From positions 1-41,280 of IMG/VR virus record IMGVR_UViG_2718218131_000003: a DNA stretch of 41,280 bases; one strand, given 5' to 3'. The notes beneath the pieces are model-generated. The model did not search any database. It saw only the letters and a program-made list of their open reading frames with translations, and was not told where the DNA came from. This document shows positions 1,422-31,683 of the stretch, in pieces (within the stretch, counting starts at the first letter, position 1; each line of letters begins with the position of its first letter). This DNA comes from a virus. Its lineage: Duplodnaviria; Heunggongvirae; Uroviricota; Caudoviricetes. The translations under genes were made by a program, and so were the position numbers.

Positions 1422-3797
1422 TTAAAAATCAGCCTGACTCGGGATCAGTTTTTGTATCGTAGCTGTAACGTATTTTGCCTGGTGACGGGCGTCATCCAGT
1501 GCATTGTGGCGCACGCCTTCGAATGGAATAACGGTTCTGGCATCAAAGTCGATTGTTTTTCCCAGCTCAACGATTGTGCGTACATCGCGATCGTTGTGGT
1601 AGCGCCACGGGCAGGGGATGTCCAGACGTTCGTATGAGGTGCGCAAAATTGCGTTATCGAAAGTCGCACCATTACCCCATACCTGAACGAATTTTTCATC
1701 TGAATATTCGTTGATGAACTTCCGAAACTGCGAAAGGGCATCCTTCAGTTTTACCTGGTCTGTTAAAATGGCAGCTCTGGCTTCACTGGACTGCTTCAGC
1801 CACCATTCGATGGTTCCACCGTCAGGAACAGCCCCTGTATTCATTGCGTCAGTCAGACTGATAACGATATAAAATACTGGCCCGATTTCCCCTGTTTGTG
1901 GGTCGAAGAAAACCGCACCAATAACCACGATGGGCGCATTGGTGTTGGTTCCCATTGTTTCAAGGTCGATCATCAGGTGATACCACACTCTGCTGGTGGA
2001 TGTGATAACGTGATGACCGTTCACCGTAATTAAGGGATCCGCCGTCTCGCCAGTTTCACTATCGCTGGCGTGGTCCTGAGCGCTGCCAGCATTCTCCTTG
2101 TGTGGATGTTCAGCGCCTTCCATTTCCTTCGGATCATTTTCCTGAACTTCAACCTGATTCTCTTCATCGAATGTTTCCTGGTATGTTGCGTCGCCCATCA
2201 CCGCGCCACAATCAGGGCAGTTGCCGCCGCCCGTCTGACCGCAGGCGGTGCAGATTTTTTCCGCTTCCTGTTGCGCTACTGGCTCAGGCTGTTTCGTTTC
2301 TGGCTCGTTTTGTAACCCCTTCACCCATTTCGGATCATTCGGGTCGCTAATCCCCTCAACAAATTCTCCGCGAGAGGCAGCAAGCAACTTATCGGCGTCA
2401 GGCTGGCTGATATTGGCTGCCTGCATAATTTTGTTTACTTCGTCAGCGGTAACTTTTACCTGATAAACCGGATCTATCTGTGCTTGAGTATCCAGCGATT
2501 GCGTGCCCTGCCGATGTTCAGTTGTATCCGGTTCCATTGTTTCAGCCGTTGCCTGCTCACCTGCCATTGCGTCAGACGGTTGTGATTTTTCCTCATTATT
2601 TTTTTCTTCTTCTGTTTCGTGTTCAGCAGCCAGTTCGCGGTTAACTTCTTCCAGAATATCTTTTTCCGGTGTATGTCGTGCAGCAGCGAGAGTTTCCTCG
2701 GAAGGGTTCTCGTGATCAGTCTCTGTTAAATTGGCGTTGATATACCCCTGAAGACGTCCCGGGTAATGATAAAACTCAGGGTGTGCGCTCCGGATAAGTG
2801 CAAAAATAGCGGCGCGGGAATAATCCAGGATACCCGGGATTGCGCGAAGTGCTGCGGACCATTCTTTGAACGGACTTTCTTTCTTCCGGACGATTTCTTT
2901 TGCGCGACGATAAACGCTGCCCGGAATTTCATAAATATTAAAATCCATCGGAAGTGTGGCCGCTGCAATCTCCACATCCAGCGTATCGAAGGTGTGTACT
3001 AAATTCGGATTGCGATCGGTTTTGTTCCCTCCACCGGCATTAGCACCGGAAGCCGTGCGGGTGATGCGTGAAACACGATTCCCTTTCATCCACTCTTTTG
3101 TCAGCAGACCGCGATCGGTGTAGTCAGCGCCCAGGTATGCTTCGAAAAAAGCAGTCATTAGCCCCAGGTCTGAATTACCAGGATTAGGGAAAACTTTGTC
3201 AGTATCACGCACCAGTTTATGGAGATCGCGAATTTCCAGTGGTTCGAGTTGCGCTGCTTTATTTGAGATGGCCAGCGCGGTAACAGCGGGAAGTTTTTCA
3301 TCCTGTGCGTTATGTAATGCGCGCAGTTCGTCCCGCGAAACGTGCGTTACTGGTTTTTCGCTGTTGTGTTGCGCCAGCCATCGAACAGGCAGAATCTGAC
3401 CTGAAACTGGCAGGAGCATATTCTCCTCAATCTCAGTCATGTCTTCACCGTTGACGTTGGTATTGTCAGTGCTGGCTGGTTTGTCCTGAACAGAGGGCAC
3501 GATAAGTACCATTGTGATACCATCTTCCCCGCCTTTTTCGTATCGGTTGCAGAATTCGGTATCAAACACGCCTTCCGGAGGAAGGTCATTCACAACGGGT
3601 AAATGGACGCGAACAGGTTTTTTAAAATCCTCTTCGTCAAATCCTGCATCGTCCATTGCGACAACACCGCGTGATATTGCAACCGATAATTTTTTTGCTG
3701 TGCGCCAGTAAAAACCGCCTTTAATCCCAAGACGTTTTCTGACTTTGTCATTTTTGGCTTCGTAATATAGTGCAATTTCTTCTTTATCAGTGCTCAT
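1422..3797 (-). CDS. phage exonuclease with C-terminal DEDDh (DnaQ-like) 3'-5' exonuclease domain
   Basis: 791-aa ORF; C-terminal motifs IDLETMG (Exo I) and HNALDDA (Exo III); long acidic low-complexity linker; N-terminal domain of unknown function. Confidence 0.75.
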
Positions 3798-5523: not shown

Positions 5524-5931
5524 TTACTGATGTTTGTTACGTTTGCGAGCTTCTAGTAGCTCGGTGAATAGGCGATTAAAATTCTCAACGCGGGCACGGA
5601 GTTCGCTGATTTGTGCTTGCTGCTCTGATTTTGGAAGTGCGCGATACAATCGCAACATCTCCAACTCATCTTCCGATAAGTCTAAGGCGCTGTTGAGTGC
5701 AACTGGTGGATCTGGTGTTTTATCCTCGTCACCAAACAGTATCCAAGTTGGTGAACATTGCAATACCTCAGCCAGGCGATGCAAATTTTGCCCGCGCGGG
5801 GCTGTATGGTCGCTTTCCCATAGTGAAATTGATGAGCCAGATACGCCAGCGGCTTTGCTTAAATCGTTTTGACTTAAACCAACCTGTTTGCGTCTTTCTC
5901 TAATTCGTTGACCTAAAGTTTTCTCGTTCAT
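5524..5931 (-). CDS. dicA: DicA-like HTH (XRE family) prophage repressor
   Basis: 135-aa ORF with N-terminal HTH (LSQNDLSKAAGVSGSSISLWE) and the block LQCSPTWILFGDEDK shared with DicA as recalled; divergent from a Cro-like gene. Confidence 0.85.
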   Translation of the reverse strand: MNEKTLGQRIRERRKQVGLSQNDLSKAAGVSGSSISLWESDHTAPRGQNLHRLAEVLQCSPTWILFGDEDKTPDPPVALNSALDLSEDELEMLRLYRALPKSEQQAQISELRARVENFNRLFTELLEARKRNKHQ

Positions 5932-5952
5932 ATTTAGATATCTTAATAACCC

Positions 5953-5995
5953 TTGACTTGAGATTCCTTGAGTGATTACTATTGAGAAAACTCAA
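5953..5995 (+). promoter_or_regulatory. putative rightward promoter and operator for dicC
   Basis: TTGACT (5953..5958), 18-nt spacer, TACTAT (5977..5982), then 14-bp palindrome TTGAGAAAACTCAA (5982..5995) just upstream of a GGAGG RBS and the dicC ATG at 6009. Confidence 0.45.
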
Positions 5996-6008
5996 CTTTG
6001 GAGGGGTG

Positions 6009-6236
6009 ATGTTTAAATCAGACGTAATTAATTTTTATGGGACGAAAGCCAAAGTAGCGAAAGCTGCTGGTGTTGATCCATCTGCTGTTTCTCAATGGGG
6101 GGAACTGGTTCCTGAAGGTCGCGCGATGCGCCTGCAAGAGGCATCCGGCGGGGAACTTCAGTACGACCCCAAAGTTTATGACGAATATCGTAAGGCAAAG
6201 CGGGCGGGGCGGTTGAACAATGAAAATCACCCCTGA
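6009..6236 (+). CDS. dicC: DicC-like (Cro-like) regulator
   Basis: 75-aa product from the ATG at 6009 with a GGAGG RBS 5 nt upstream; small basic HTH-type protein divergent from the repressor; resembles DicC as recalled. Confidence 0.7.
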   Translation: MFKSDVINFYGTKAKVAKAAGVDPSAVSQWGELVPEGRAMRLQEASGGELQYDPKVYDEYRKAKRAGRLNNENHP

Positions 6237-6771
6237 ACAGGTTTGTGAGGCTCTGGATGCCTGGGTATGTCGACCAGGAATGACACAGGAGCAGGCGACG
6301 ATATTAATCACGGAAGCATTCTGGGCTCTGAAAGAACGCCCGAACATCGATGTTCAACGCGTCACGTTTAATGATGGCGAGGTTGATCAACGGGCGCTGG
6401 GCGTTAACCGGGTGAAGATATTCGAACGCTGGAAAGCTATCGACACCAGGGATAAGCGGGAAAAATTCACGGCGCTGATTCCGGCAATTATGGAGGCTAT
6501 CCGGATCAGCGATTTCAGGTTGTATTGTGAAATTACTGACGGAAAAAGCATTACGTACATGATCGCCGGGTTAAACAAAGAATATGGCGATGTGGTGGAG
6601 TCCGGGCTGCTTTTTGCGGATCCATCTGTTGTGGAACGTGAGACTGACGAGCTTATAGAAAAAGCTATTGCTTTCAAGCATGCGTATCGTCAGCAATATC
6701 AATATTACTTTGCAGATAAACAAATGTCTGCCAGGGGTTCGTATGAGTATCGATGCACTACGATGGGCTAA
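6220..6771 (+). CDS. hypothetical regulatory protein (CII-like/YdaT-family, tentative)
   Basis: 183-aa ORF immediately after the Cro-like gene and overlapping it by 17 nt; position equivalent to cII/ydaT; no motif I can verify. Confidence 0.4.
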   Translation: MKITPEQVCEALDAWVCRPGMTQEQATILITEAFWALKERPNIDVQRVTFNDGEVDQRALGVNRVKIFERWKAIDTRDKREKFTALIPAIMEAIRISDFRLYCEITDGKSITYMIAGLNKEYGDVVESGLLFADPSVVERETDELIEKAIAFKHAYRQQYQYYFADKQMSARGSYEYRCTTMG

Positions 6772-13855: not shown

Positions 13856-14221
13856 ATGACTGAACGCATAGAATTTGTTTTGCCTTACCCGCCAACGGTG
13901 AACACTTACTGGCGACGTCGTGGCAGCACATATTTTGTATCAAAAGCCGGTGAGCGTTATCGCCGTGATGTGGCGCTTATTGTTCGCCAGCAGCGGCTGA
14001 AATTAAACCTGTCCGGAAGGCTGGCGATAAAGATTATTGCAGAGCCACCGGATAAGCGTCGTCGTGACCTGGACAATATCCTGAAAGCACCACTGGATGC
14101 GCTGACGCATGCCGGACTTCTCATAGACGACGAGCAGTTTGATGAAATCAATATTGTGCGCGGTCAGCTCGTTCCTGGGGGGCGGCTGGGCGTGAAGATT
14201 TACAAAATTGAGAGTGAGTGA
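13856..14221 (+). CDS. rusA: Holliday junction resolvase RusA
   Basis: 121-aa product with RusA blocks (LPYPPTVNTYWRRRG...PDKRRRDLDNILKAPLDALTHAGLLIDDEQ) aligning to RusA as recalled. Confidence 0.85.
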   Translation: MTERIEFVLPYPPTVNTYWRRRGSTYFVSKAGERYRRDVALIVRQQRLKLNLSGRLAIKIIAEPPDKRRRDLDNILKAPLDALTHAGLLIDDEQFDEINIVRGQLVPGGRLGVKIYKIESE

Positions 14222-14772
14222 TCGTAAATATGATATATCCGGAAATTACAGGCAAAAGCGGCGAGCATTTACGTCTAAAAACGCTGGAAGCCGTCTGGAT
14301 CCAGGGGAAATTACGGATGTGGGGGCGTTGGTCGTATATAGGTGGTGGCAAACCAGGAAATATGTTCAATCAGTTGCTGACATCCAAAAAACTGACAAAA
14401 ACCGCGATCAATGAAGCCCTGCGTAGAATCAGGGAGTCAGGGATTGATAAACCAGAGCTGGAAGCATTCTTGCGAGAGATGATCGCTGGCAGACAGAAGA
14501 GCTGGTTGTCTCACTGTACTGATGCAGAGGCGTTACGCATTGATGGGGTGATAAGTAAAGCGCTTGCACGTTATCCTGGATTGATTGATATCCTGCGGCA
14601 AAGGTACGAAGGGCGGGGGATGAGTAAACGCAAAATGGCTGAATTGTTGAATGAGGTTCACCCTGAGTGGTGCTATGCAACATGCCGCAATCGTATAGAT
14701 ATGTGGCTGAGAATAGCTGAGTTTATTCTGTATCCACTGATGCGAGATGCATTTTCTTTTACTGACGCTTAG
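14218..14772 (+). CDS. late-gene antiterminator (Q-like), assigned mainly by position
   Basis: 184-aa ORF overlapping the rusA stop; followed by an intrinsic terminator and then the late region, the classic Q / late promoter / tR-prime arrangement; sequence-level assignment not verified. Confidence 0.5.
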   Translation: MIVNMIYPEITGKSGEHLRLKTLEAVWIQGKLRMWGRWSYIGGGKPGNMFNQLLTSKKLTKTAINEALRRIRESGIDKPELEAFLREMIAGRQKSWLSHCTDAEALRIDGVISKALARYPGLIDILRQRYEGRGMSKRKMAELLNEVHPEWCYATCRNRIDMWLRIAEFILYPLMRDAFSFTDA

Positions 14773-14939: not shown

Positions 14940-14961
14940 CCCGCTTTATGCGGGTTTTTTT
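14940..14961 (+). terminator. intrinsic terminator (tR-prime-like) downstream of the Q-like gene
   Basis: Hairpin CCCGC-TTTAT-GCGGG followed by TTTTTTT (14955..14961). Confidence 0.65.
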
Positions 14962-15102: not shown

Positions 15103-15282
15103 ATGACCGAAACCGCCAGAGTGGTGTTTAATGAATTAAGCGTCACCGAACCGGCGACCGTCGGGGAAATTGCGCAGAATACTGACCTTTCACGCGAACG
15201 CTGCCAGTTAATACTGACTCAGCTTGTTATGGCGGGTCTGGCAGATTATCAGTTCGGTTGTTACAGACGCCTTCCGCAGTGA
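15103..15282 (+). CDS. possible small HTH protein (weak)
   Basis: 59-aa product from the internal ATG at 15103 (MTETARVVFNELSVTEPATVGEIAQNTDLSRERCQLILTQLVMAGL...); RBS spacing is poor; the ORF-track start at 14962 lies inside the terminator T-tract. Confidence 0.25.
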   Translation: MTETARVVFNELSVTEPATVGEIAQNTDLSRERCQLILTQLVMAGLADYQFGCYRRLPQ

Positions 15283-15432
15283 AGGCTTTTTAATTTGTGG
15301 TAATGGGCGGCTGGTGGGTGTTAGCGGCACCTGCCAGCCATCTGCTCATGCGTTGGGGTCACAAGCAAACCTCAGGCCCATCTGCTTTGCGCAAAAGCGG
15401 TATGAGCCTATCAGAGAAGTGCTTATTGATCT

Positions 15433-16481
15433 ATGGCTAATACTGTAAAAATATCCAGTTGTGAGTTAATCAACGCTGATTGCCTGGAATTTATCCAGAC
15501 CTTACCGGAAAATTCTGTCGATCTGATAGTCACAGACCCGCCATACTTTAAAGTGAAGCCCGAGGGCTGGGATAACCAGTGGAAGGGCGACGATGATTAC
15601 CTGAAATGGCTGGATCAGTGTCTGGCGCAATTCTGGCGGGTACTGAAACCTGCCGGAAGTCTCTACCTGTTCTGTGGTCATCGCCTGGCATCTGACACCG
15701 AAATCATGATGCGTGAGCGCTTTAATGTGCTGAACCACATTATCTGGGCGAAGCCGTCCGGACGCTGGAACGGGTGCAATAAGGAAAGTCTGCGGGCGTA
15801 TTTTCCGGCAACAGAGCGCATTCTGTTTGCAGAACATTATCAGGGACCGTATCGCCCGAAAGATGATGGCTATGTGGAGCAGGGGCGCGAGCTAAAACAG
15901 CACGTCATGGCCCCGCTGATTTCTTACTTTCGTGATGCGCGTAAATCACTGGGAATAACGTCAAAACAGATAGCGGAAGCCACCGGAAAGAAAAACATGG
16001 CTTCGCACTGGTTTGGTATCAGTCAGTGGCAGTTACCGAACGAGGGTGATTACAACAAATTGCAGGCGTTGTTTGCGCGTGTTGCGGCAGAAAAACATCA
16101 GCGCGGGGAACTGGAAAAGCCACACCACCAGCTGGTCAGCACATACAGTGAGCTGAACCGGCAGTATACGGAACTGCTGAGTGAATATAAAAATTTGCGG
16201 CGGTATTTCGGTGTGACGGCGCAGGTTCCGTACACCGATGTCTGGACGCATAAACCGGTGCAGTACTATCCAGGGAAACATCCGTGCGAAAAACCGGCAG
16301 AAATGCTGCAGCAGATAATCAACGCGAGCAGTCGTCCGGGAGACCTGGTTGCAGATTTTTTATGGGTTCAGGTTCAACGGTAAAAGCGGCGATGGCACTG
16401 GGGCGTTGTGCGATTGGTGTTGAGCTGGAGACCGGACGCTTTGAACAGACAGTCAGGGAAGTTCAGGATTTAATCGTTTGA
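15433..16481 (+). pseudogene. DNA N6-adenine methyltransferase (DPPY motif), split by a frameshift at a T6 tract
   Basis: ORF 15433..16383 carries DPPY (motif IV) and ends ...DLVADFLWVQVQR; ORF 16284..16481 in another frame carries FFMGSGSTVKAAMALG (motif I, FxGxG). Frames meet at TTTTTT 16356..16361; one additional T would give a continuous ~349-aa enzyme. Confidence 0.75.
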
Positions 16482-16530: not shown

Positions 16531-16606
16531 GGCCCTTTAGCTCAGTGGTGAGAGCGAGCGACTCATAATCGCCAGGTCGCTGGTTCAAATCCAGCAAGGG
16601 CCACCA
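16531..16606 (+). tRNA. tRNA with CAU anticodon, ileX-like (tRNA-Ile2, lysidine type) or Met
   Basis: 76 nt, acceptor stem GGCCCTT/AAGGGCC, anticodon loop CTCATAA, GTTCAAATC T-loop, 3' CCA; closely resembles E. coli ileX as recalled. Confidence 0.8.
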
Positions 16607-16607
16607 A

Positions 16608-16684
16608 CCGCCACTAGCTCATCAGGAAAGAGCGTCAACCCTTTAAGTTGAGTGTGCGAGGTTCGAGTCCCCGGTGGCGGTCCA
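16608..16684 (+). tRNA. tRNA, atypical; anticodon loop CCTTTAA (UUU/Lys if canonical), isotype uncertain
   Basis: 77 nt; acceptor CCGCCAC/GTGGCGG, D-stem GCTC/GAGC, anticodon stem TCAAC/GTTGA, T-loop TTCGAGT, 3' CCA; position 33 is C rather than the near-universal U and C1-G72 starts the acceptor stem. Confidence 0.5.
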
Positions 16685-16686
16685 GT

Positions 16687-16762
<76 letters not shown>

Positions 16763-16765
16763 TAT

Positions 16766-16840
<75 letters not shown>

Positions 16841-17048
16841 GTTAGAGTCTTTCGGTCTGCGATGATGGGAAATCCCGGAGTGACTGAAAGACGTTTAGGT
16901 TATGAATGATCGCCTTTTTTTTGCAAAATTGCTGTGCAGAAATACCAACCTTCGGGCAGGCGATCATTCATAAGCACTCTGCTTTTATTCCGATTAACTG
17001 TGGGTGGTTTGTTGGATAGAGTGCTTTCCTGACTGTAGATCCAATTTC

Positions 17049-17073
17049 GCCCGCTTTTGCGGGCTTTTCTTTT
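17049..17073 (+). terminator. intrinsic terminator downstream of the tRNA array
   Basis: Hairpin GCCCGC-TTTT-GCGGGC followed by TTTTCTTTT. Confidence 0.6.
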
Positions 17074-18257: not shown

Positions 18258-18721
18258 GCAGAGTCGCAGCGATTATTTATACTCTGGTTATCTGCACCAT
18301 CGTCTGCCTGTCGTGGGCGGTCAATCATTACCGTGATAACGCCATCACCTACAAAGAACAGCGTGATAAAAAAGTCAGTGAGCTGAAGCAGGTGACCGCC
18401 ACCATCGCTGACATGCAGCAGCGTCAGCGTGATGTTGCTGCGCTCGATGCAAAGTACTCGAGAGAATTAGCCAATGCGAAAGCTGAAAATGAAACTCTGC
18501 GCGCTGATGTTGCCGCTGGTCGTAAGCGCCTGCGGGTCAATGCCAGTTGCTCCGCAGCCGTGCGTGAAGCCACCGGACCCACCAGCGTGGATAATGCAAC
18601 CAGCCCCCGACTGGCAGACACCGCTGAACGGGATTATTTCATCCTCAGAGAACGGTTGATGACAATGCAGAAGCAGCTGGAAGGGGCACAGGACTATATC
18701 CGCACTCAGTGCCTGAACTAA
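18254..18721 (+). CDS. Rz: i-spanin Rz
   Basis: GTG start overlapping the endolysin stop (GTGA); N-terminal TM helix ([17 protein letters not shown]) followed by coiled-coil periplasmic domain. Confidence 0.75.
18474..18659 (+). CDS. Rz1: o-spanin Rz1 (lipoprotein) embedded in the +1 frame of Rz
   Basis: Signal peptide with lipobox LVVSAC, proline-rich mature part ([24 protein letters not shown]); entirely inside Rz in another frame. Confidence 0.7.
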
Positions 18722-19135
18722 GTTTTGCTGATGCGCCGTATCGTCACCGTATTCCTGCATTAACAGAGACCGCAGCCCGACAGGGAGACTCCTCTGCGAG
18801 AGTGTGCGGGGATAATCAAAAACGATACACACCGGGGTTTACCGCGTTAACGGAGCGCGGTGTTGTCCCCTCATAGTCGCCAGTCCGGTGCGATGGTGGA
18901 AGAAACTGGATTTTGTTGCAAATGATAACCATTATCATTTTTTGCGGGTCCTCCTGGTGGGGTGGGCCTGAACACGGGGCGGGCGGCGCGGAAAAAGGCG
19001 CATTTTTTGATTTTTATGGCACCATCACCACCAGTGTAAGTTATTGATATATAGAAAAATAAAAATTTTTAGTGTCGAATCTGGTTGTTTTTTGTTCATC
19101 ACTGGTGTGTGTTTACATAATTTTCAGGGGGAGTT

Positions 19136-19612
19136 ATGGATCGTGAATTAAAAAATCTGCATCTGAATATTTCCCAACTGGCCGCATTATCCGGTGCTCA
19201 TCGACAGACTGTTGCGGCTCGGGTAAAAAACATAAGCCCAGCCGGTGGTCATGAGAGCAATCTCAAACTGTACCGACTGACAGATATCCTTGCCGAGCTG
19301 ATGAAAGCTCCTCTGCCTGTAGATAACAAGGAAATGGATCCTCATGCGCGTAAAGCATGGTACCAGTCAGAACGTGACCGACTGAAATTTGAGCAGGAAA
19401 CTGGTCAGCTTGTGCCAGTCAGTGATGTCAGGCGGTCCTTTTCTGTCGTGGTGAAAGCGATAGTTCAGGTACTGGAAACCTGGCCTGACCGGCTGGAAAG
19501 GGACAGGGGGTGGACCGCATCACAACTGAATGAAGTACAGATTGTGGTTGATGAGATCCGCGATACACTGGAAAAGGCAGTCATTGACTGTTGTGATGAG
19601 GCCGATATGTGA
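19136..19612 (+). CDS. terminase small subunit (Nu1-like, N-terminal HTH)
   Basis: 158-aa ORF with N-terminal HTH (ISQLAALSGAHRQTVAARVKN), directly upstream of and overlapping the large terminase gene; preceded by a cos-like GC-rich segment. Confidence 0.7.
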   Translation: MDRELKNLHLNISQLAALSGAHRQTVAARVKNISPAGGHESNLKLYRLTDILAELMKAPLPVDNKEMDPHARKAWYQSERDRLKFEQETGQLVPVSDVRRSFSVVVKAIVQVLETWPDRLERDRGWTASQLNEVQIVVDEIRDTLEKAVIDCCDEADM

Positions 19613-21732
19613 ATCAGGTGAACGAGAGCCATAGCCGCGCATCCGATATCTGGCGCGAAGTGGCCTCGCTGTTTCGCCCACCCAGCCGGTTACCAGTAGC
19701 GGAAGCCATCAGGCGTTATATGCGGGTTCCACGGGGAGCCAATACTTCCGGTCCGTGGGAGTCATCGCTGACGCCCTATATGATTGACCCCATTAATACA
19801 TTATCAGCCCGTGAATATGACGCGGTGGTGTTTGTGGGACCTGCGCGAACCGGGAAAACCGAAGGGCTGATTGATGGCTGGATTGTGTACGGCATCATCT
19901 GTGATCCGGCGGATATGCTGGTGGTGCAGATGACTGAGACGAAGGCGCGTGAGCATTCCAGAACGCGTCTTTCCAGGACGTTTCGCCACAGTCCGGAGGT
20001 CAGCAAGCGCCTCAGTCCTTCCCGTAATGACAACAACGTCCACGATAAAATGTTTCTTGACGGCTCCTTCCTGAAGATTGGCTGGCCGTCGATCACCGTC
20101 TTTTCCTCTTCGGATTACCGTCGTGTGGCGCTGACGGATTATGACCGTTTCCCTGAAAATGTGGACGGGGAAGGGGATGCCTTCACGCTGGCCTCAAAGC
20201 GTACCACCACCTTTATGTCCTCGGGGATGACCCTGGTCGAGAGTTCACCGGGGCGGGATATCACCGATACCAAATGGCGTTGTGGTGGCGCACATGAGGC
20301 ACCGCCAACAACGGGGATCCTGTCACTGTATAACCGGGGAGACCGCCGCCGGTGGTACTGGCCGTGTCCGCACTGCGGGGAATATTTTCAGCCGGTGATG
20401 GATAACATGACCGGATACCGGAATAACCCGGATTTTGTGGCTGCCGGTCAGGCTGCCCGTCTGATGTGTCCGCATTGTCGCGGGCTGATTGCCCCTGAGC
20501 AGAAACGCGAACTGAATAACCAGGGGATCTGGCTTCGTGAAGGTGAACGGGCGGCGGCGGACGGCAGTATCACCGGAACGCCACGAAACTCCCGGATTGC
20601 GTCATTTTGGATGGAGGGGCCAGCTGCGGCGTTTCAGACCTGGGAACAACTGATTTTTAAACTGCTGGCGGCAGAAGAAGAGTATGAGCGAACCGGCAGT
20701 GAAGAGACCCTGAAAGCGGTGGTGAACACCGATATCGGACGACCCTATCTTCCCCGTTCAGCCACGGAACAGCGTAAAAGTGAACTGCTTGAACAGCGTG
20801 CCGAGCCGTTTCCCCGGCGATCTGTGCCGGATGGTGTGCGTTTTATTGAGGCAACGGTTGACGTACAGGGCGGTAAAAATCGCCGTTTTGTTGTGCAGAT
20901 CACCGGATACGGAGAGCAGGGGGAACGCTGGATTGTTGATCGCTACAACATCCGGCATTCACTGCGCTGCAGTCCCAACGGTGAAAGTCTGCCGGTTGAT
21001 CCGGCGGCATATCCGGAGGACTGGGATTTGTTGCTGACGGATGTGTTCCATAAAACATGGCCGCTGGCTTCTGATCCGGATGTGCGCATGCGTCTGATGG
21101 CCATGGCGGTGGATACGGGAGGGGAAGCCGGGGTGACAGATAACGCCTATCGTTTCTGGCGTCGTTGCCGGAGTGACGGACTGGGCAACAGGGTGTTTCT
21201 GTTCAAGGGGGATGGACTTCGCCGTGACAGGCTGATTAACCGAACCTTCCCGGATAATACCGGCAGAAGTGCCCGCCGTGCCAGAGCCAGTGGCGATGTC
21301 GCGCTGTGGCTGGTTCAGACGGATGCGTTTAAGGATCGTGTAAATAATGCCCTGTGGCGTGACACACCAGGGCCGAACTATATCCACTTTCCCGACTGGC
21401 TGGGGCGGTGGTTTTACGATGAGCTGACCTATGAAGAGCGCGGCAGTGACGGAAAATGGCGAAAACCGGGCAGGGGCGCTAACGAAGCGTTTGACCTGCT
21501 GGTTTATGCGGATGCGCTTGCCGTTCTGCATGGTTACGAAAAGATCCGCTGGCCCTCCGCACCGGACTGGGCACAGCGGGAAACGTGGCTCGTCTTCCCG
21601 CAGGAGCGTTCTGGTGAAACGGTATCCCCGGAACTGACGGCCGGGGCAGAAAAACGCCGTCGCCGGAAGAAAAAACTGCGGACGGAGCGTGCGGAAGATA
21701 ATCCATGGATAACATCAGGAGGCTGGTTGTGA
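19609..21732 (+). CDS. terminase large subunit (lambda gpA-like)
   Basis: 707-aa ORF; N-terminal layout like gpA (SLFRPPSRLPVAEAIRRY...), Walker-A-like GPARTGKTE, C-terminal nuclease region; GTG start overlapping the small-subunit stop. Confidence 0.85.
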   Translation: MNQVNESHSRASDIWREVASLFRPPSRLPVAEAIRRYMRVPRGANTSGPWESSLTPYMIDPINTLSAREYDAVVFVGPARTGKTEGLIDGWIVYGIICDPADMLVVQMTETKAREHSRTRLSRTFRHSPEVSKRLSPSRNDNNVHDKMFLDGSFLKIGWPSITVFSSSDYRRVALTDYDRFPENVDGEGDAFTLASKRTTTFMSSGMTLVESSPGRDITDTKWRCGGAHEAPPTTGILSLYNRGDRRRWYWPCPHCGEYFQPVMDNMTGYRNNPDFVAAGQAARLMCPHCRGLIAPEQKRELNNQGIWLREGERAAADGSITGTPRNSRIASFWMEGPAAAFQTWEQLIFKLLAAEEEYERTGSEETLKAVVNTDIGRPYLPRSATEQRKSELLEQRAEPFPRRSVPDGVRFIEATVDVQGGKNRRFVVQITGYGEQGERWIVDRYNIRHSLRCSPNGESLPVDPAAYPEDWDLLLTDVFHKTWPLASDPDVRMRLMAMAVDTGGEAGVTDNAYRFWRRCRSDGLGNRVFLFKGDGLRRDRLINRTFPDNTGRSARRARASGDVALWLVQTDAFKDRVNNALWRDTPGPNYIHFPDWLGRWFYDELTYEERGSDGKWRKPGRGANEAFDLLVYADALAVLHGYEKIRWPSAPDWAQRETWLVFPQERSGETVSPELTAGAEKRRRRKKKLRTERAEDNPWITSGGWL

Positions 21733-21941
21733 GCACAGAAGAAGCCAGAGAAATGATACAGCGGTACCGTGAAGCGGAAATGGCCGTACTGGAGGGAAAG
21801 TCTGTCACCTTCAACGGGCAGCAACTGACGCTGGAAAGCCTTTCTCAGATCCGCGCCGGACGTCAGGAGTGGGAACGCAGGCTTGCCGCGATGGTGAGCC
21901 GCAGGCGGGGAAAACCGGGATTTAAACTGGCGAGGTTTTAA
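21729..21941 (+). CDS. head-tail joining protein (lambda gpW-like)
   Basis: ~70 aa from a GTG overlapping the terminase stop; C-terminus RRGKPGFKLARF resembles the lambda W C-terminus; sits between terminase and portal. Confidence 0.65.
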   Translation: MSTEEAREMIQRYREAEMAVLEGKSVTFNGQQLTLESLSQIRAGRQEWERRLAAMVSRRRGKPGFKLARF

Positions 21942-23443
21942 TGGCAATTATTGATGATGTGATCGGCGTGTTTTCCCCCGGGTGGAAAGCAGCCAGACTG
22001 CGTTCAAGGGCGTTAATCATGGCCTATGAGGCGGTGAAACCGACCCGGACACATAAAGCCCGGCGGGAAAATCGCTCTGCTGATCAGCTCAGTAAATACG
22101 GTGCGGTTTCCCTGCGGGAGCAGGCCCGTTTTCTGGATATCAATCATGACCTGGTGATTGGTGTGTTTGACAAGCTGGAAGAGCGGGTGATTGGTGCCAG
22201 GGGAATTATTGTGGAGCCTCAGCCATTACGAAAAAACGGGGAAATGGCGGCTGAGCTGGCTGCGGATATCCGCCGTTTGTGGGCTGAATGGTCCGTGAGT
22301 CCGGATGTGACAGGGCAGTATACCCGTCCTGTGCTTGAACGTTTACTGCTGCGGACCTGGCTGCGGGATGGTGAAGTGTTTGCGCAGATGGTCAGTGGTG
22401 CGGGAAACGGTCTGGAACGGACGGCGGGAGTGCCATTCTGGCTTGAGGCGATGGAGCCGGATTTTGTTCCCATGCGCACTGATGAATCCGCCGGACTGAA
22501 TCAGGGGGTTTTTCTTGATGAGTGGGGAAGACCGAAAAAATATCTGGTTTATAAAAATTATCCGGTCAGCGGCCGGCAGAGTGATACGAAAGAAATCGCT
22601 GCCGGAAAAATGATCCACCTGAAGTTCACTCGTCGTCTGCATCAGACGCGAGGCTCATCCATGTTATCGGGGGTGCTGATGCGGATCAGTGCCCTTAAGG
22701 AGTATGAGGATGCGGAACTGACAGCGGCGCGTATTGCTGCGGCGCTGGGACTGTATATCCGTAAAGGTGACGGACAGGACTATGAAGATCCGGGGATCAA
22801 AGAGACTGAGCGGGAAGTCCATATCACCCCGGGTATTATTTATGACGATTTGCGCAAGGGCGAGGATATCGGCATGGTCAAATCTGACCGTCCCAATCCC
22901 AACCTTGAAACTTTCCGCAACGGCCAGTTGCGTGCAGTGGCAGCAGGCAGTCGTCTGAGTTTTTCCAGTGCGGCGCGTAACTATAACGGCACCTACAGCG
23001 CCCAGCGGCAGGAGCTGGTCGAGTCCACGGATGGTTACCTGATCCTGCAGGACTGTTTTATTGGCGCGGTAACCCGCCCGGTGTACCGGACATGGCTGAA
23101 TATGGTGGTTGCGGCAGGTCTGCTGAAAATTCCGGCGGATGTGGAGATGAAAACGCTATATAACGCGACGTATTCCGGTCCGGTGATGCCGTGGATCGAC
23201 CCGGTTAAGGAAGCTGAAGCCTGGAGAATTCAGATCCGGGGTGGTGCAGCGACAGAATCTGACTGGGTGCGTGCCGGTGGGCGCAATCCGGATGAGGTCA
23301 AACGTCGCCGCAAGGCTGAAATTGATGAAAACAGCAGACTGGGGCTGGTCTTTGATACTGACCCCGTCAACGACAAAGGAGGCAACAGTGCCGGAACTGA
23401 ACGACAGTATCAGCGCGACACCGAAAGCCAGCATGAAGAATAA
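21941..23443 (+). CDS. portal protein
   Basis: 500-aa ORF immediately after W and before the protease/capsid gene; size and position of the lambda-family portal. Confidence 0.7.
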   Translation: MAIIDDVIGVFSPGWKAARLRSRALIMAYEAVKPTRTHKARRENRSADQLSKYGAVSLREQARFLDINHDLVIGVFDKLEERVIGARGIIVEPQPLRKNGEMAAELAADIRRLWAEWSVSPDVTGQYTRPVLERLLLRTWLRDGEVFAQMVSGAGNGLERTAGVPFWLEAMEPDFVPMRTDESAGLNQGVFLDEWGRPKKYLVYKNYPVSGRQSDTKEIAAGKMIHLKFTRRLHQTRGSSMLSGVLMRISALKEYEDAELTAARIAAALGLYIRKGDGQDYEDPGIKETEREVHITPGIIYDDLRKGEDIGMVKSDRPNPNLETFRNGQLRAVAAGSRLSFSSAARNYNGTYSAQRQELVESTDGYLILQDCFIGAVTRPVYRTWLNMVVAAGLLKIPADVEMKTLYNATYSGPVMPWIDPVKEAEAWRIQIRGGAATESDWVRAGGRNPDEVKRRRKAEIDENSRLGLVFDTDPVNDKGGNSAGTERQYQRDTESQHEE

Positions 23444-25412
23444 ATCCTGGTTCAGGATGCAAGCTGGGGGGCCGGGTGACGCGGATATTTATATTTATGA
23501 CGAGATTGGTTTCTGGGGAGTTACCGCGAAGCAGTTTGTCAGCGAACTGAATGCACTGGGTGATATCACCCACATTAATCTCCATATCAATTCACCGGGT
23601 GGCGATGTCTTTGAAGGCATCGCCATTTTTAATGCCCTGAAAAATCAGGGGGCGACCATTACCGTGTATGTGGATGGCGTTGCCGCCTCGATGGCATCTG
23701 TGATTGCGATGGCCGGTGATACGGTCATTATGCCGGAAAATGCCTTCATGATGATCCATAAGCCATGGGGATTCAGTGGCGGGGATGCTGAGGATATGCG
23801 CAGTTATGCCGATTTGCTGGATAAAGTCGAATCGGTACTGTTGCCAGCCTATGCGCAGAAAACCGGAAAAACCACCGATGAAATTGCCGCCATGCTGGCG
23901 GATGAAACCTGGATGTCCGGTGCCGAATGTCTGGCACACGGATTTGCTGACCAGGTGACACCCGCTGTTGAGGCAATGGCATGTATTCAGTCAAAACGTA
24001 CAGAGGAATTTAAAAAGATGCCGGAATCCATCCGAAACATGATTACTCCGCCACGCAACAGTGCCCCGCGTGATACCACAGTGACAATCCCTGCACCGGC
24101 GGTAACAGAACCATCACCGGTACCGGCAGTGTCTGATGAGGCGACCATTCGCGCCCGCGTTATGGCAGAACAGAAAGCCCGCATGTCAGGCATTAACGAT
24201 CTGTTTGCCATGTTCGGCGGTCGCTATCAGACGCTTCAGGCACAGTGCGTGGCTGATCCTGACTGTTCGCTGGAAATGGCCCGTGAACGACTGCTGAATG
24301 AAATGGGCAAGGAGTCCTCGCCGACCAACAAAAATACACCGGCCCATATTTATGCCGGAAACGGCAATTTTGTGGGGGACGGGATCCGCCAGGCGATGCT
24401 GGCCCGTGCCGGATTTGAAAATGTCGAGAAGGATAACGCCTATAACGGGATGACCCTGCGTGAATGGGCTCGCATGTCACTGACGGAGCGCGGTATTGGG
24501 GTGGCCAGTTATAACCCCATGCAGATGGTCGGGCTGGCGCTGACGCACAGCACCTCTGATTTTGGCAATATTCTGCTGGATGTGTCGAACAAGGGGCTGA
24601 TCCAGGGCTGGGAGGAATCAGAAGAAACCTTCCAGAAGTGGACCCGTAAGGGACGCCTGTCAGACTTCAAAACAGCGTATCGCGTGGGGATGGGCGGTTT
24701 TGGTTCTCTGCGCCAGGTTCGTGAGGGGGCGGAGTATAAATACATCACCACCTCAGATCGCAAGGAGACCATTGCACTGGCCACTTACGGGGAGATTTTC
24801 TCCATCACCCGCCAGGCCATTATCAATGATGATCTGAATATGCTGGTGGACGTGCCGATGAAGATGGGGCGTGCGGCGAAGGCAACGATTGGTGACCTGG
24901 TCTACAAGGTGCTGACGGATAACCCGAAACTGTCCGACGGTAAGGCGCTGTTCCATGCCGATCACAAAAATATTGCCACCGGGGGGATCTCCGTTTCCGG
25001 ACTGGATGCGGCCCGTCAGATGATGCGCCTGCAGAAAGAAGGCGATCGTGCCCTGAATATCCGTCCGGCCTTTATGCTGGTACCGGTGGCACTGGAGACG
25101 GTGGCGAACCAGACCATCAAATCGGCCAGTGTGAAAGGGGCGGATGCAAACGCCGGTGTCATTAACCCTATCCAGAACTTTGCTGAGGTGATTGCAGAAG
25201 CGCGTCTTGATGCGGCAGACCCGAAAACCTGGTATCTGGCGGCGGCACAGGGCACTGACACCATTGAAGTGGCCTGGCTGGATGGTGTGGACACGCCATA
25301 CATTGATCAGCAGGAAGGTTTCACCACTGACGGCATTGCCACAAAAATCCGTATTGATGCCGGAGTGGCACCACTTGACTGGCGCGGGCTGGTGCGTTCG
25401 TCGGTGGCCTGA
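23433..25412 (+). CDS. prohead protease (ClpP/S49-like) fused to major capsid protein
   Basis: ATG at 23433 overlapping the portal stop; N-terminal ClpP-like domain (INSPGGDVFEGIAIFNAL...VDGVAASMASVIAMAGD...MMIHKP), central Pro/Ala-rich linker, C-terminal ~350 aa capsid-like region. Confidence 0.65.
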   Translation: MKNKSWFRMQAGGPGDADIYIYDEIGFWGVTAKQFVSELNALGDITHINLHINSPGGDVFEGIAIFNALKNQGATITVYVDGVAASMASVIAMAGDTVIMPENAFMMIHKPWGFSGGDAEDMRSYADLLDKVESVLLPAYAQKTGKTTDEIAAMLADETWMSGAECLAHGFADQVTPAVEAMACIQSKRTEEFKKMPESIRNMITPPRNSAPRDTTVTIPAPAVTEPSPVPAVSDEATIRARVMAEQKARMSGINDLFAMFGGRYQTLQAQCVADPDCSLEMARERLLNEMGKESSPTNKNTPAHIYAGNGNFVGDGIRQAMLARAGFENVEKDNAYNGMTLREWARMSLTERGIGVASYNPMQMVGLALTHSTSDFGNILLDVSNKGLIQGWEESEETFQKWTRKGRLSDFKTAYRVGMGGFGSLRQVREGAEYKYITTSDRKETIALATYGEIFSITRQAIINDDLNMLVDVPMKMGRAAKATIGDLVYKVLTDNPKLSDGKALFHADHKNIATGGISVSGLDAARQMMRLQKEGDRALNIRPAFMLVPVALETVANQTIKSASVKGADANAGVINPIQNFAEVIAEARLDAADPKTWYLAAAQGTDTIEVAWLDGVDTPYIDQQEGFTTDGIATKIRIDAGVAPLDWRGLVRSSVA

Positions 25413-25434
25413 TAACCGCGTTATCACAATCACT

Positions 25435-25453
25435 GCCCGAAAGGGCTTTTTTT
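25435..25453 (+). terminator. intrinsic terminator downstream of the capsid gene
   Basis: Hairpin GCCC-GAAA-GGGC followed by TTTTTTT; a second hairpin AGCCCC-ACAG-GGGCT at 25457..25471. Confidence 0.5.
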
Positions 25454-25499
25454 ATGCCTGAAAAACAGCCCCACAGGGGCTGTCCGGAGAAACAGCATT

Positions 25500-25826
25500 A
25501 TGGCGAAAAATTTTGTACAGGACGGTACCACCATTGAACTGGTGAATGCCGGAGATCAGACCATCCTGAGCGGTGCTGCGGTGGTGGTCGGCAGTATGGT
25601 GGCCGTGGCCATTACCGATATTCCTGCCGGTGAGGCCGGTGACGGTTTTGCCGAAGGCGTGTTCCTGCTGCCCAAACAGTCTGCTGACGACATTCAGTCC
25701 GGCGCGGTGGTTTATCTGAAGGACGGGGTTGTGCAGTTGGCTGCCGACGGTGCGGTGGCCGCGGGGGTAGCCTGGGAAAATGCTCCTGCAAACAGCGCCA
25801 CTGTGGCGGTAAAAATCAATGTCTGA
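25500..25826 (+). CDS. head-associated protein (DUF2190-like, possible decoration/stabilisation protein)
   Basis: 108-aa Gly/Ala/Val-rich ORF directly after the capsid gene; assignment by position and composition. Confidence 0.45.
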   Translation: MAKNFVQDGTTIELVNAGDQTILSGAAVVVGSMVAVAITDIPAGEAGDGFAEGVFLLPKQSADDIQSGAVVYLKDGVVQLAADGAVAAGVAWENAPANSATVAVKINV

Positions 25827-26100
25827 TCTGTTTACGCGAATGTGTTGCCGGATGGACGTGGCGACCGTTCGGATGATGGGCAAACAGGCGGAGATTAACG
25901 GCGTCGTGTACGACGTGATGCCGGAGGAAGAGTCCGCGGAGATGGGGGCGCTTTCGGGCAGCCAGTTGTCACTGGTGGTGTTTTCAGCCCGGTACCGTCC
26001 GGCCCGTCATGATGTTGTTGTGTTTGAGGGCCGCACACTGACGGTGACCCGTTATGACACGTACAACGGTAAACCCCGGATTTTTGTCGAACAGGAATGA
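25819..26100 (+). CDS. head completion / head-tail connector protein (FII-like position)
   Basis: 93-aa ORF between the head and gpZ-like genes, overlapping its neighbours. Confidence 0.45.
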   Translation: MSDLFTRMCCRMDVATVRMMGKQAEINGVVYDVMPEEESAEMGALSGSQLSLVVFSARYRPARHDVVVFEGRTLTVTRYDTYNGKPRIFVEQE

Positions 26101-26726
26101 GTATGGCAATAAAAGGTCTGGCGCAGGCCATGAAAAATCTGGATGCAATTGACCGCCGTGCCGTTCCCCGGGCTGCCGCCACGACACTTAACCGTGTGGC
26201 GGAGTCCATCATCGCGAAAACGGCCTCTTCGGTTGCCAGGGAGCTGGCGGTTCCGCGCCGTCTCATCCGTGAGCGTATCCGCCTGCAACGGGCCAGTGCA
26301 GACAGGGTTTATGCGAAGGTCATCATCAACACCGGTAATCTGCCCGCCATAAAACTGGGGACGGCCAGCGTGCGGCTTTCCCGCAGAAAGCGACGAAAGA
26401 AAGGCGAGCGTTCGGTCACGAAAGGCGGTGGCAGTGTGCTGATTGTGGGGAAAAGACGGATCCCGGATGCCTTTATCACCCGGCTGGCTAACGGACGCTG
26501 GCATGTGATGCAGCGTATGCCGTGGGCATCATCGTCCACCGGCGCTGACAGCAAAGGGAGGCCGAAACGCCACCGTCTGCCGACTGAAGTGGTGAAGATT
26601 CCGACTGCCGGACCGCTGGCAGAAACCTTTGAACGTGAACGGGACCGGATGTACCGGGAAAAATTACCGGCGCAGATGATGAAAGCCATGACGCATCAGT
26701 TACGTCTGGTGCTGAAAAGAAAATGA
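26097..26726 (+). CDS. Z: tail completion protein (lambda gpZ-like)
   Basis: 209 aa; aligns to lambda Z as recalled (MAIKGL..., RRKRRKKG, GGGSVL, NGRWHVMQR, VVKIP). Confidence 0.8.
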   Translation: MSMAIKGLAQAMKNLDAIDRRAVPRAAATTLNRVAESIIAKTASSVARELAVPRRLIRERIRLQRASADRVYAKVIINTGNLPAIKLGTASVRLSRRKRRKKGERSVTKGGGSVLIVGKRRIPDAFITRLANGRWHVMQRMPWASSSTGADSKGRPKRHRLPTEVVKIPTAGPLAETFERERDRMYREKLPAQMMKAMTHQLRLVLKRK

Positions 26727-26738
26727 CTGGGAGGGTGT

Positions 26739-27137
26739 ATGAAACACCGTGAAATACGGGCGGCAGTTCTGTCTGCCCTGAAAGAAAATATTTCTGAGAG
26801 GGTGAGCTGGTTTGACGGTCGCCCGGTTTTTATTGATGAACAGGAACTGCCTGCTGTTGCTGTTTACCTGACAGATGCGTCTGCTGCTGACGAGTTCGTT
26901 GATGAGGGAACCTGGGAGGCGACACTGCATATTGAGGTTTTTCTCAGGGCAAAAGAACCGGACTCGGCACTGGATATGTGGATGGAAGAAAAAATTCTTC
27001 CTGCGCTGGAGGCAGTTCCCGGGCTCAGTGCATTACTGCTGAAGATGAATCTTCAGGGGTATGACTACCGCCGGGATGATGAGTTTATGATGTGGGGATC
27101 GGCAGATCTCCTGTGGAAAATTACATACGAGATGTGA
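26739..27137 (+). CDS. U: tail terminator protein (lambda gpU-like)
   Basis: 132 aa; [14 protein letters not shown]...PAVAVYLT...HIEVFL...GYDYRRDD...ITYEM closely parallels lambda U. Confidence 0.85.
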
Positions 27138-27144
27138 GGACGAT

Positions 27145-27897
27145 ATGGCAACACCAAATCCCCTTGAGCCGGTAAAAGGTGCCGGTACCACTCTGTGGGT
27201 TTACAACGGCAAGGGTGATGCTTATGCAAACCCGTTGTCAGACGATGACTGGCAGCGACTGGCTAAGGTGAAGGATCTGACGCCGGGCGAGATGACGGCA
27301 GAACCCTACGATGATAACTACCTGGATGATGAAGACGCGGACTGGACCGCGACCGGGCAGGGGCAGAAGTCTGCAGGAGATACCAGTTTTACGCTGGCCT
27401 GGAAACCGGGAGAAGAAGGTCAGAAAGGGCTTATAGGCTGGTTTGAAAGCGGGGATGTGCGGGCCTATAAAATCCGTTTCCCAAATGGCACGGTGGATGT
27501 GTTCCGTGGCTGGGTCAGCAGTATCGGTAAGGCCGTGACGGCGAAAGAAGTGATCACCCGCACGGTGAAAGTCACTAACGTGGGCAAACCTTCCGTGGCG
27601 GAAGAACGCAGCGAAATTACGCCGGCCACTGCAATTAAGGTGACACCGACATCCGGTACGGTGGCAAAAGGGAAAACAACCACCCTGACTGTTTCTTTTG
27701 AGCCGGAAAGTGCAACCGACAAGACGTTCAGAGCGGTTTCCGCCGATCCGTCGAAAGCCACCATTAGTGTGAAAGATATGACAATTACGGTAAACGGCGT
27801 GGCGACAGGTAAGGTGCAGATCCCTGTGGTGAGCGGAAATGGTCAGTTCGCCGCAGTGGCTGAAGTCACCGTTACTGAAGCGGGCGCTGCAGGGTAA
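27145..27897 (+). CDS. V: major tail protein (lambda gpV-like, C-terminal Ig-like domain)
   Basis: 250 aa; long identical blocks to lambda V as recalled ([76 protein letters not shown]). Confidence 0.9.
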
Positions 27898-27910
27898 ACG
27901 GAGGTAATAC

Positions 27911-28333
27911 ATGTTTCTGAAAACAGAACAATTTGAATATAACGGTGTGTCCGTCACGCTTTCCGAATTGTCTGCGCTGCAGCGGTTTGATTATATAAAG
28001 TTTGTTTCAGACGCAGAACAACAGGAGACAACGAAGCATGATGTCGTGCACATTAACCAGCGATATCTGGAAACGGCATCCCTGCTTGTGGCGATGTCGC
28101 TATGGCATTCCCATTCCCTCAAAGGCACTCTGGCCTCTCCGGAGACAGAGATGCAGCAGATCCGCCGTGAAGTGATGCTGGGATGGCCTGCTGATGCACT
28201 GAATCAGGCAACGAACCGGGTGCTTTATCTTTCAGGTATGCTGGATAACCGGCACGATGCCGATCCTGAACAAACCGGGAAAGCAGAAGCGACTGAGCCG
28301 GTAACATCAAAAAAGCATTCGAAGGCGAGCTGA
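27911..28333 (+). CDS. G: tail assembly chaperone (lambda gpG-like)
   Basis: 140 aa; MFLKTEQFEYNGVSVTLSELSALQR...LVAMSLWH parallels lambda G. Confidence 0.85.
   Translation: MFLKTEQFEYNGVSVTLSELSALQRFDYIKFVSDAEQQETTKHDVVHINQRYLETASLLVAMSLWHSHSLKGTLASPETEMQQIRREVMLGWPADALNQATNRVLYLSGMLDNRHDADPEQTGKAEATEPVTSKKHSKAS
28309..28315 (+). promoter_or_regulatory. programmed -1 ribosomal frameshift site A_AAA_AAG (G to G-T)
   Basis: Heptamer A AAA AAG sits in X_XXY_YYZ phase in the G frame, 18 nt before the G stop; the -1 frame is open from 28297 and continues as the T-like sequence (KKAFEGELNFVLKLAREMGRPDWR...). Confidence 0.7.
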
Positions 28334-28668
28334 ACTTTGTCCTGAAACTGGCGCGAGAGATGGGGAGACCCGACTGGCGCGCCATGCTTGCCGGGATGAC
28401 ATCCACCGAATATGCCGACTGGCGACGTTTTTACTGCACGCATTATTTTCAGGATACCCAGCTGGATATGCATTTTTCCGGGCTGACGTACGCCGTACTC
28501 AGCCTGTTTTTTTGCGATCCGGATATGCATCCGGCGGATTTCAGCCTGTTCGCTCCGGAGGCAGAGGAAGGGCAGGCGGAGACGCCGGACGAAAATGATG
28601 TACTGATGCAGAAGGCGGCGGGCCTCGCCGGTGGAGTCCGTTTCGGGGAGGAGGGAAGGAGGTTGTGA
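28315..28668 (+). CDS. T: tail assembly protein T segment (translated as G-T fusion by -1 frameshift)
   Basis: -1 frame relative to G; product region FEGELNFVLKLAREMGRPDWRAMLAGMTSTEYADWRRFY...VLMQKAAGLAGGVRFG parallels the lambda gpT portion of G-T. Confidence 0.8.
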   Translation, partial: AFEGELNFVLKLAREMGRPDWRAMLAGMTSTEYADWRRFYCTHYFQDTQLDMHFSGLTYAVLSLFFCDPDMHPADFSLFAPEAEEGQAETPDENDVLMQKAAGLAGGVRFGEEGRRL

Positions 28669-28702
28669 CAGTTATTGATGGTATCAGAGGACATTTCAGG
28701 AG

Positions 28703-31357: not shown

Positions 31358-31683
31358 AGACCTTCCGCTGGAAAGTGAAACCCGGTATGGATGTGGCTTC
31401 GGCCCCTTCCGTCAGGAAAGTGCGCTTTGGTGATGGCTATTCCCAGCGAGCGCCTGCCGGGCTGAATGCCGACCTGAAAACGTACAGCGTGACGCTGTCT
31501 GTCTCCCGTGAAGAGGCCACGGCGCTGGAGTCGTTTCTGGCTGAGCACGGGGGCTGGAAGGCCTTTCTGTGGACGCCGCCTTATGGTTACAGGCAGATAA
31601 AGGTGACCTGCGCAAAATGGTCGTCGCAGGTCCGTATGTTGCGTGTTGAGTTCAGCGCAGAGTTTGAACAGGTGGTGAACTGA
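31354..31683 (+). CDS. M: tail tip protein (lambda gpM-like)
   Basis: 109 aa; MKTFRWKVKPGMDVAS...VTCAKWSS...VEFSAEFEQVVN matches lambda M; ATGA overlap with the H stop. Confidence 0.85.
   Translation: MKTFRWKVKPGMDVASAPSVRKVRFGDGYSQRAPAGLNADLKTYSVTLSVSREEATALESFLAEHGGWKAFLWTPPYGYRQIKVTCAKWSSQVRMLRVEFSAEFEQVVN

Follow-up and report, generated by a model that had tools for sequence, protein, structure and literature searches.

The window analysed here, a stretch of 41,280 nt (positions 1 to 41,280 of an IMG/VR virus record), contains a methyltransferase gene that is broken by a frameshift towards its 3' end; the features of the locus are collected in Table 1. The sequence at 16351-16383 reads GCA GAT TTT TTA TGG GTT CAG GTT CAA CGG TAA, so that the 316 amino acid product of the upstream ORF ends in ...DLVADFLWVQVQR before the stop codon, whilst the adjoining frame, which frame arithmetic gives as -1 relative to the upstream one, reads on as FFMGSGSTVKAAMALGRCAIGVELETGRFEQTVREVQDLIV to a stop at 16481. 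Intact relatives carry seven T residues (T7) where the window has six (T6) and read GAT TTT TTT ATG, or D F F M, at this point; T7 is present in L003 (the ETEC allele), L004 and L013-L015.

Table 1. Features of the methyltransferase locus and its immediate surroundings (positions in the window)
Feature	Position	Strand	Remarks
DUF1133 / Q-like antiterminator gene, upstream	14218..14772	+	PF06576 E=3e-101; weak PF06530 Phage_antitermQ
Methyltransferase gene, whole, broken	15433-16481	+	beta-class N6-adenine DNA methyltransferase
Upstream ORF, 316 aa	15433..16383	+	DPPY (motif IV) and central target-recognition region; PF01555 positions 1-188 of 221, E=1.8e-29
Catalytic motif IV, DPPY	15535-15546	+	residues 35-38
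GGGAG, Shine-Dalgarno-like, in codons of P-G-D	16338..16342	+	13 nt upstream of the heptamer
T6 homopolymer, site of the one-base deletion	16356..16361	+	seen in the sequence; T7 in intact relatives
T_TTT_TTA heptamer created by the deletion	16356..16362	+	zero frame; formal -1 slippery site
C-terminal part, -1 frame, to the natural stop	16359..16481	+	PF01555 positions 188-219
AdoMet-binding motif I, F-M-G-S-G	16359-16373	+	-1 frame; aligned to motif I of solved beta-class methyltransferases
Predicted hairpin just downstream of the heptamer	16364..16433	+	MFE -32.6 kcal/mol
Premature stop TAA	16381-16383	+	closes the 316-aa upstream ORF
Four-tRNA array, directly downstream	16531..16840	+	CAU-anticodon tRNA, Lys-UUU, Thr-UGU, Gly-UCC

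Profile searches with the Pfam model PF01555 (N6_N4_Mtase, length 221, gathering score 26.7 bits) recognise both parts of the gene, with scores of 103.7 bits for the N-terminal ORF and 31.2 bits for the C-terminal one. When a single T is added, the two matches (1-188 and 188-219) join in a 349 amino acid protein that covers model positions 1-219 at 152.4 bits, and for this reason the break is a genuine single-base frameshift within one gene rather than a chance juxtaposition. No continuous ORF with both DPPY and FxGxG exists here, the premature TAA following the T6 tract. An earlier note on this DNA, made from the letters alone, had described a methyltransferase split by one base at this tract, with T7 restoring an enzyme of ~349 amino acids and with DPPY preceding FxGxG, and that description is borne out on each of these points by the sequence, the two ORFs, the joining of the Pfam halves and the motifs themselves. 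The tract is the sole homopolymer of six or more bases inside the methyltransferase gene, and yet there is nothing special about it in itself, given that the window as a whole contains 63 such runs.

The order of genes around the methyltransferase (the DUF1133/Q-like gene, a small TrmB-like ORF, the methyltransferase, the tRNA array, holin, endolysin and Rz) marks its location as the late region of a lambdoid prophage, between Q and the lysis cassette. A scan for promoters revealed no sigma-70-like site in the interval from the Q-like gene to the methyltransferase; gene order taken together with published work on the family (PMC5778455) suggests expression as part of the late operon. Of two terminator-like hairpins with T tails, one (15269-15286) sits where the small TrmB-like ORF ends, and the other (17049-17064), which is GC-rich, separates the tRNA region from the holin gene; these may be late terminators of the kind overcome by Q antitermination. 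The stretch from the tRNA array to the holin gene also contains an inverted repeat, perfect over 15 bp (TTATGAATGATCGCC ... GGCGATCATTCATAA, 16900-16973), which encloses a run of eight T residues (16915-16922). The first tRNA of the array is called as Met (CAT) by ARAGORN and, for an identical gene, as tRNA-Ile by PGAP, the latter presumably reflecting a lysidine-modified CAU anticodon. The composition of the array varies among close relatives of the methyltransferase, being Ile-Lys-Thr-Gly in the window, Ile-Thr-Gly in E24377A and either Ile-Arg-Arg or Ile-Arg in ETEC, O26 and Stx phages.

Among the closest known relatives of the methyltransferase are M.EcoGI and M.EcoGII (Murray et al. 2018, PMC5778455), non-specific adenine DNA methyltransferases that come from prophages of E. 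coli O104:H4 C227-11. M.EcoGII is a beta-class enzyme of 349 amino acids that acts on adenine whatever the context; in the lysogen it is silent, constitutive expression is deleterious, and it belongs to a very large family found in E. coli prophages, in its own case in what seems to be a 'well-defined prophage' (PMC5778455). The repaired window protein is identical to M.EcoGII at 317 of 350 positions, or ~91%, although the true identity may be slightly higher, as the reference sequence (from the supplement of PMC11551740) was available as machine-read text with a few OCR errors. Identity to the L24 protein of phiP27 is 92.5% and to the methyltransferase of phage 1720a-02, itself described as a close relative of M.EcoGII (PMC5778455), 89.7%. 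Searches of PHROGs and the PDB are both consistent with a beta-class methyltransferase, the latter matching the structures of M.RsrI, CcrM, M1.MboII and DpnA. Judged by these likenesses, the window gene is a member of the M.EcoGI/M.EcoGII family of promiscuous prophage adenine methyltransferases.

Homopolymer indels are a classic error of long-read and of 454/Ion Torrent sequencing, and the missing T might accordingly be an artefact of this one record, with a true tract of T7. A gene identical to that of the window, T6 included, is nevertheless found in four complete E. coli genomes of chicken origin, that of the Pakistani isolate PK8241 and those of three Z1323CEC strains (Z1323CEC0009 being recorded as South Korean), the Pakistani and South Korean genomes having been produced independently, and an allele that differs by five SNPs and is likewise T6 is present in two Vietnamese chicken-meat isolates. 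An 80-nt probe detects T6 in exactly six complete genomes; some 200 genomes have the probe context one base longer, and every one of the matches listed spans 81 nt and is thus T7. The 316 amino acid product is deposited in exactly this form in GenBank (APT02517.1 and others) and is encoded on eight contigs, all of them T6, that were assembled independently from the short reads of separate metagenome or SRA samples and that have names in both MEGAHIT and SPAdes style. Moreover, no T7 version is on record of the window haplotype, with its patch of 5' SNPs (gene positions 151-231), and an error in this record would need to reproduce by chance an allele already known from nature. An error of this kind is thus exceedingly unlikely. 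PGAP flags the T6 gene as 'frameshifted' in PK8241, TB4019 and Z1323CEC0009. On this evidence T6 is a real, heritable allele, already annotated as a pseudogene in RefSeq. Among the readings put forward in the earlier note, that of a homopolymer sequencing error is refuted as a general explanation by the six complete genomes and eight contigs, whilst that of a decaying pseudogene is supported by the reality and heritability of the frameshift and from its RefSeq annotation.

How the allele arose can be read from the SNPs that surround the tract. The T6 alleles lie on the haplotype of the in-frame (T7) gene of O26:H11 strain 11368, from which they differ by three 5' SNPs, the missing T and, in some copies, a patch of five SNPs (151-231), making 3-8 SNPs and one T in all; T6 therefore arose by deletion from T7. 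Further damage has not accumulated in the window lineage, for which reason the allele is judged to be young; being free of secondary damage, it does not itself display decay. In the meantime it has spread over different prophage backbones and at least three countries; it must, at a minimum, be tolerated, and its spread could be a sign of some benefit, whether kept or newly gained.

The related prophage of PK8241 is inserted between yccA and tRNA-Ser, and its early, late-regulation/lysis and distal tail regions are 91-99% identical to those of the window, whereas the packaging, head and tail-shaft module of the window (18700-31680) finds no megablast match in it; the window prophage is a mosaic relative of the PK8241 prophage, displaying typical lambdoid mosaicism. 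In three ENA metagenome contigs (L005-L007, ~230-1090), the identical T6 allele follows a 273 amino acid PF03589 antiterminator rather than DUF1133, and homology to the window begins at window position 14950, an exchange of modules just upstream of the pseudogene. Elsewhere in the sister prophages, the ydfR-family gene of TB4019 is flagged by PGAP as frameshifted (L002 4920-5269) and only Rz1, with no Rz, is annotated by PGAP in PK8241 (L001 ~5870-6330); these are signs of scattered decay of the lysis cassette in related prophages.

Set against the family as a whole, frameshifted copies are rare. The methyltransferase family is carried by ~2,600 complete genomes, at 3,726 places, and the T-tract frameshift is found in 14 of those ~2,600, so that frameshifted copies make up at most about 1% of family members. 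In IMG/VR, a relative is encoded on at least 597 contigs. For the best 80 of these, taken from a protein-seeded search for loci, the state of the tract was counted: T7 in 55, T6C in 20, TTCTTC in three, TTCTTT in one and T6 in one. Seventy-nine of these 80 best relatives are in frame and full length, at 348-358 amino acids, and in 24 the run of T residues is interrupted by a synonymous C, as it also is in both phiP27 and 1720a-02.

A pattern scan of IMG/VR identified four T6 contigs (L021-L024) and a single T8 contig (L025). One of the T6 contigs, L022, has an ETEC-like haplotype, sharing with the ETEC allele L003 markers on either side of the tract (gene positions 587 and 1008), and its T6 is probably an independent deletion. 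The T6 alleles of L023 and L024 have an identity of just 85% with the window gene. The remaining T6 contig (L021 1-436, IMGVR_UViG_2636416163_000009) lacks the 5' two-thirds of the gene in addition to having T6 and is a doubly damaged relic. In the T8 contig (L025 4480-4506, IMGVR_UViG_2879742664_000003), an M.EcoGII-like allele is frameshifted by +1; this is the only T8 in the IMG/VR scan, with none in complete E. coli genomes, and it could be an error of draft assembly. Taken together, these alleles show the T run to be a recurrent break point of the gene, with independent hits in a minimum of two lineages and probably in three or more. That the hits are concentrated on one long homopolymer is what replication slippage predicts, and selection is therefore not needed as an explanation, although selection against a harmful enzyme may help T6 alleles to persist.

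The more diverged of these lineages offers a view of a T6 allele at a later stage. The L024-type allele is found, as T6, in eight complete genomes from the USA, Canada, Japan and Korea (L026, NZ_CP027219.1 1928077-1929134; L028, NZ_AP038810.1 4703540-4704597; and six others), among which are STEC and O103:H2, cattle and chicken isolates, and PGAP flags it as 'frameshifted' in both of the annotations that were retrieved, those of 2015C-3163 (USA) and 22-245 (Japan). No in-frame allele closer to this lineage than 93.9% was found in the 5,426 genomes. It carries six unique replacements (Y123H, Y147C, K229W, T316M, T334A and L347F) at residues that are otherwise invariant as judged against seven other sampled alleles; three of the six fall within the 33 codons that follow the shift, with T316M directly after motif I. 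Pairwise pN/pS against the nearest in-frame alleles is 0.21-0.22, which does not differ decisively from the 0.1-0.2 of the family. The replacements are the signature of relaxed constraint, or decay, following inactivation, and the lineage serves as a preview of the future of the window allele. Downstream of the pseudogene in NZ_CP027219.1, an 82-nt element between tRNA-Ile and tRNA-Arg is annotated by PGAP as 'tRNA-OTHER' (L026 2791-2872; NZ_CP027219.1 1929258-1929339).

A tract that is hit repeatedly (T6 on the O26-like, the ETEC-like L022 and the 85% identical lineages, T8 in one IMG/VR contig), and that is the only run of its length in the gene, is what might be expected of a contingency switch in which slipped-strand changes in the length of the T run turn phage methylation on and off, one of the possibilities named in the earlier note. 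The distribution of the alleles argues otherwise. Each T6 allele is fixed in all the isolates that carry it (six genomes and eight contigs for the window allele, eight of eight for the second lineage). The repaired 349 amino acid sequence of the window allele is absent from 15 billion proteins, amongst which the truncated 316 amino acid form is present, and no T7 revertant is therefore on record in that collection. Nor does T8 occur in the 5,426 complete genomes, either with the flanks of the window or with a second type of flank, whilst a third type of flank, which matches more than 800 genomes at 95-99% identity, yielded no T6. Otherwise identical alleles do not occur in both phases, and the tract is not kept across homologues: since 24 of the 80 best relatives break the run with a synonymous C, the run itself is not under selection. 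The rarity of frameshifted copies across the family also counts against a switch. Six to seven T residues are, furthermore, well below the length and mutability of known homopolymeric contingency tracts, and mismatch repair is intact in the E. coli host. Between them, the missing revertant, the missing T8 with these flanks, the lack of conservation of the run and the scarcity of frameshifts leave a phase-variable switch very improbable.

A different way of retaining activity would be -1 ribosomal frameshifting, whether adventitious or exploited, by which a few ribosomes would make active enzyme and expression would be attenuated. The heptamer created by the deletion occupies the zero frame, and the shift needed to restore the enzyme is precisely -1, slippage in the P site giving the wild-type D-F-F-M; GGGAG lies 13 nt upstream and a hairpin follows directly; and, M.EcoGII being harmful when constitutively expressed (PMC5778455), attenuation could be tolerated or even favoured. 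T6 also persists in several prophage backgrounds. In E. coli, UUUUUUA has been found to give 0.094% frameshifting without a stimulator, over a background of ~0.055%, rising to 0.27% when the stimulators of IS911 are present and to 1.27% when the strong pseudoknot of IS3 is (Sharma et al., PMC4066793 and its supplement), an efficiency, therefore, of only 0.09-1.3%. The stability of the hairpin is only marginally above that of shuffled sequence (z = -1.88, with 10 of 200 shuffles folding equally well), and the same sequence is found in T7 alleles, so that the hairpin did not evolve for frameshifting. GGGAG was likewise inherited unchanged from in-frame T7 alleles and is not conserved in phage 1720a-02 or mEp460, although it is possible that it acts as a fortuitous stimulator. 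The phase and direction of the heptamer are those of a programmed site, whereas neither shift site nor stimulator is conserved among homologues; 79 of the 80 best IMG/VR relatives have no need of a frameshift; and the three unique replacements in the 33 post-shift codons of the older T6 lineage argue that this frame is no longer read. The heptamer is most likely adventitious, and ribosomal frameshifting as the explanation for the allele is improbable.

A bolder version, in which the T7 run is a recurrent target of selection and the -1 deletion leaves a 'dimmer' that allows ~0.1-1% of ribosomes to rebuild the enzyme, we consider a long shot; were it true, the lysogen would be spared a harmful methyltransferase whilst phage DNA could still be methylated during the burst. 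Two further routes to an active product were set aside. A split enzyme made of two polypeptides was rejected, the relatives being single-chain and the only starts for a second polypeptide being a GTG (16284) that lies deep inside the upstream ORF and an ATG (16362) from which just 39 amino acids would follow. Transcriptional slippage was discounted because E. coli RNA polymerase slips to an appreciable extent only on runs longer than six.

Very probably, then, the gene is a null pseudogene, produced by an inherited one-base slippage deletion in a late-region orphan methyltransferase of the M.EcoGI/M.EcoGII family. One T has been lost from T7, replication slippage being the likely mechanism, in the codons for Asp-Phe-Phe just before the AdoMet-binding motif, and translation stops seven codons after the deletion. 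The 316 amino acid product keeps DPPY and lacks motif I and everything beyond it and, because these are missing, is predicted to be unable to bind the methyl donor AdoMet. The intact family member is thought to methylate phage DNA at induction (PMC5778455). Progeny of the T6 phage would be expected to lack this blanket adenine methylation, and with it protection against restriction in new hosts, whilst the lysogen may be freed of a potentially harmful enzyme. That the phage is otherwise viable is consistent with the spread of the allele.

What lies in the window is, in short, an ordinary and fairly young pseudogene in a mosaic lambdoid prophage, already annotated as such and derived from an enzyme family that is known. 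A modest addition is that the T7 run before the AdoMet-binding motif is the preferred break point of the M.EcoGI/GII prophage methyltransferases. For annotators, the frameshift is best treated as a genuine allele to be kept as a pseudogene and not 'corrected'. Phages with T6 should be less well shielded from Type I and Type III restriction in new hosts, which could hold back these poultry-associated prophages a little in their spread.

Comparison with better known systems helps to place the gene. It resembles the phasevarions (the mod genes of Haemophilus, Neisseria and Helicobacter) in that a simple repeat, through its length, sets the frame of a methyltransferase. Known phasevarions have far longer tracts, however, and both phases are found among near-clonal isolates, whereas the window gene has a run of 6-7 nt that is not conserved and whose state is fixed in each lineage. 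With programmed frameshift sites the likeness is one of parts: the heptamer is identical to the U_UUU_UUA of HIV-1 gag-pol, correct in phase and direction, and the window shares an SD-like element upstream and a hairpin downstream with such sites as dnaX (A_AAA_AAG), IS911/IS3 and HIV-1. It is unlike them in that it stems from a recent deletion, is not conserved, uses a motif that is weak in E. coli and has no evidence of selected stimulators.

Nearer relatives are L24 of phiP27 and the 'DNA methylase' of Stx phages, in which, as in the window, a small TrmB-like ORF is followed by the methyltransferase and then by a tRNA array. The Stx-phage gene has Q on one side and the ileZ/arg tRNAs and stx genes on the other, whereas the window has the Ile-Lys-Thr-Gly set and then lysis genes rather than stx; and the phiP27 and Stx-phage copies differ from that of the window in being in frame, the run in phiP27 even being interrupted (GATTTTTTCATG). 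M.EcoGII is again a close match. Although the window copy is frameshifted before motif I and predicted to be inactive, and non-specificity is for this copy a prediction from sequence likeness, it matches M.EcoGII in its repaired length of 349 amino acids, in the order of DPPY, target-recognition region and FxGxG, and in its prophage setting.
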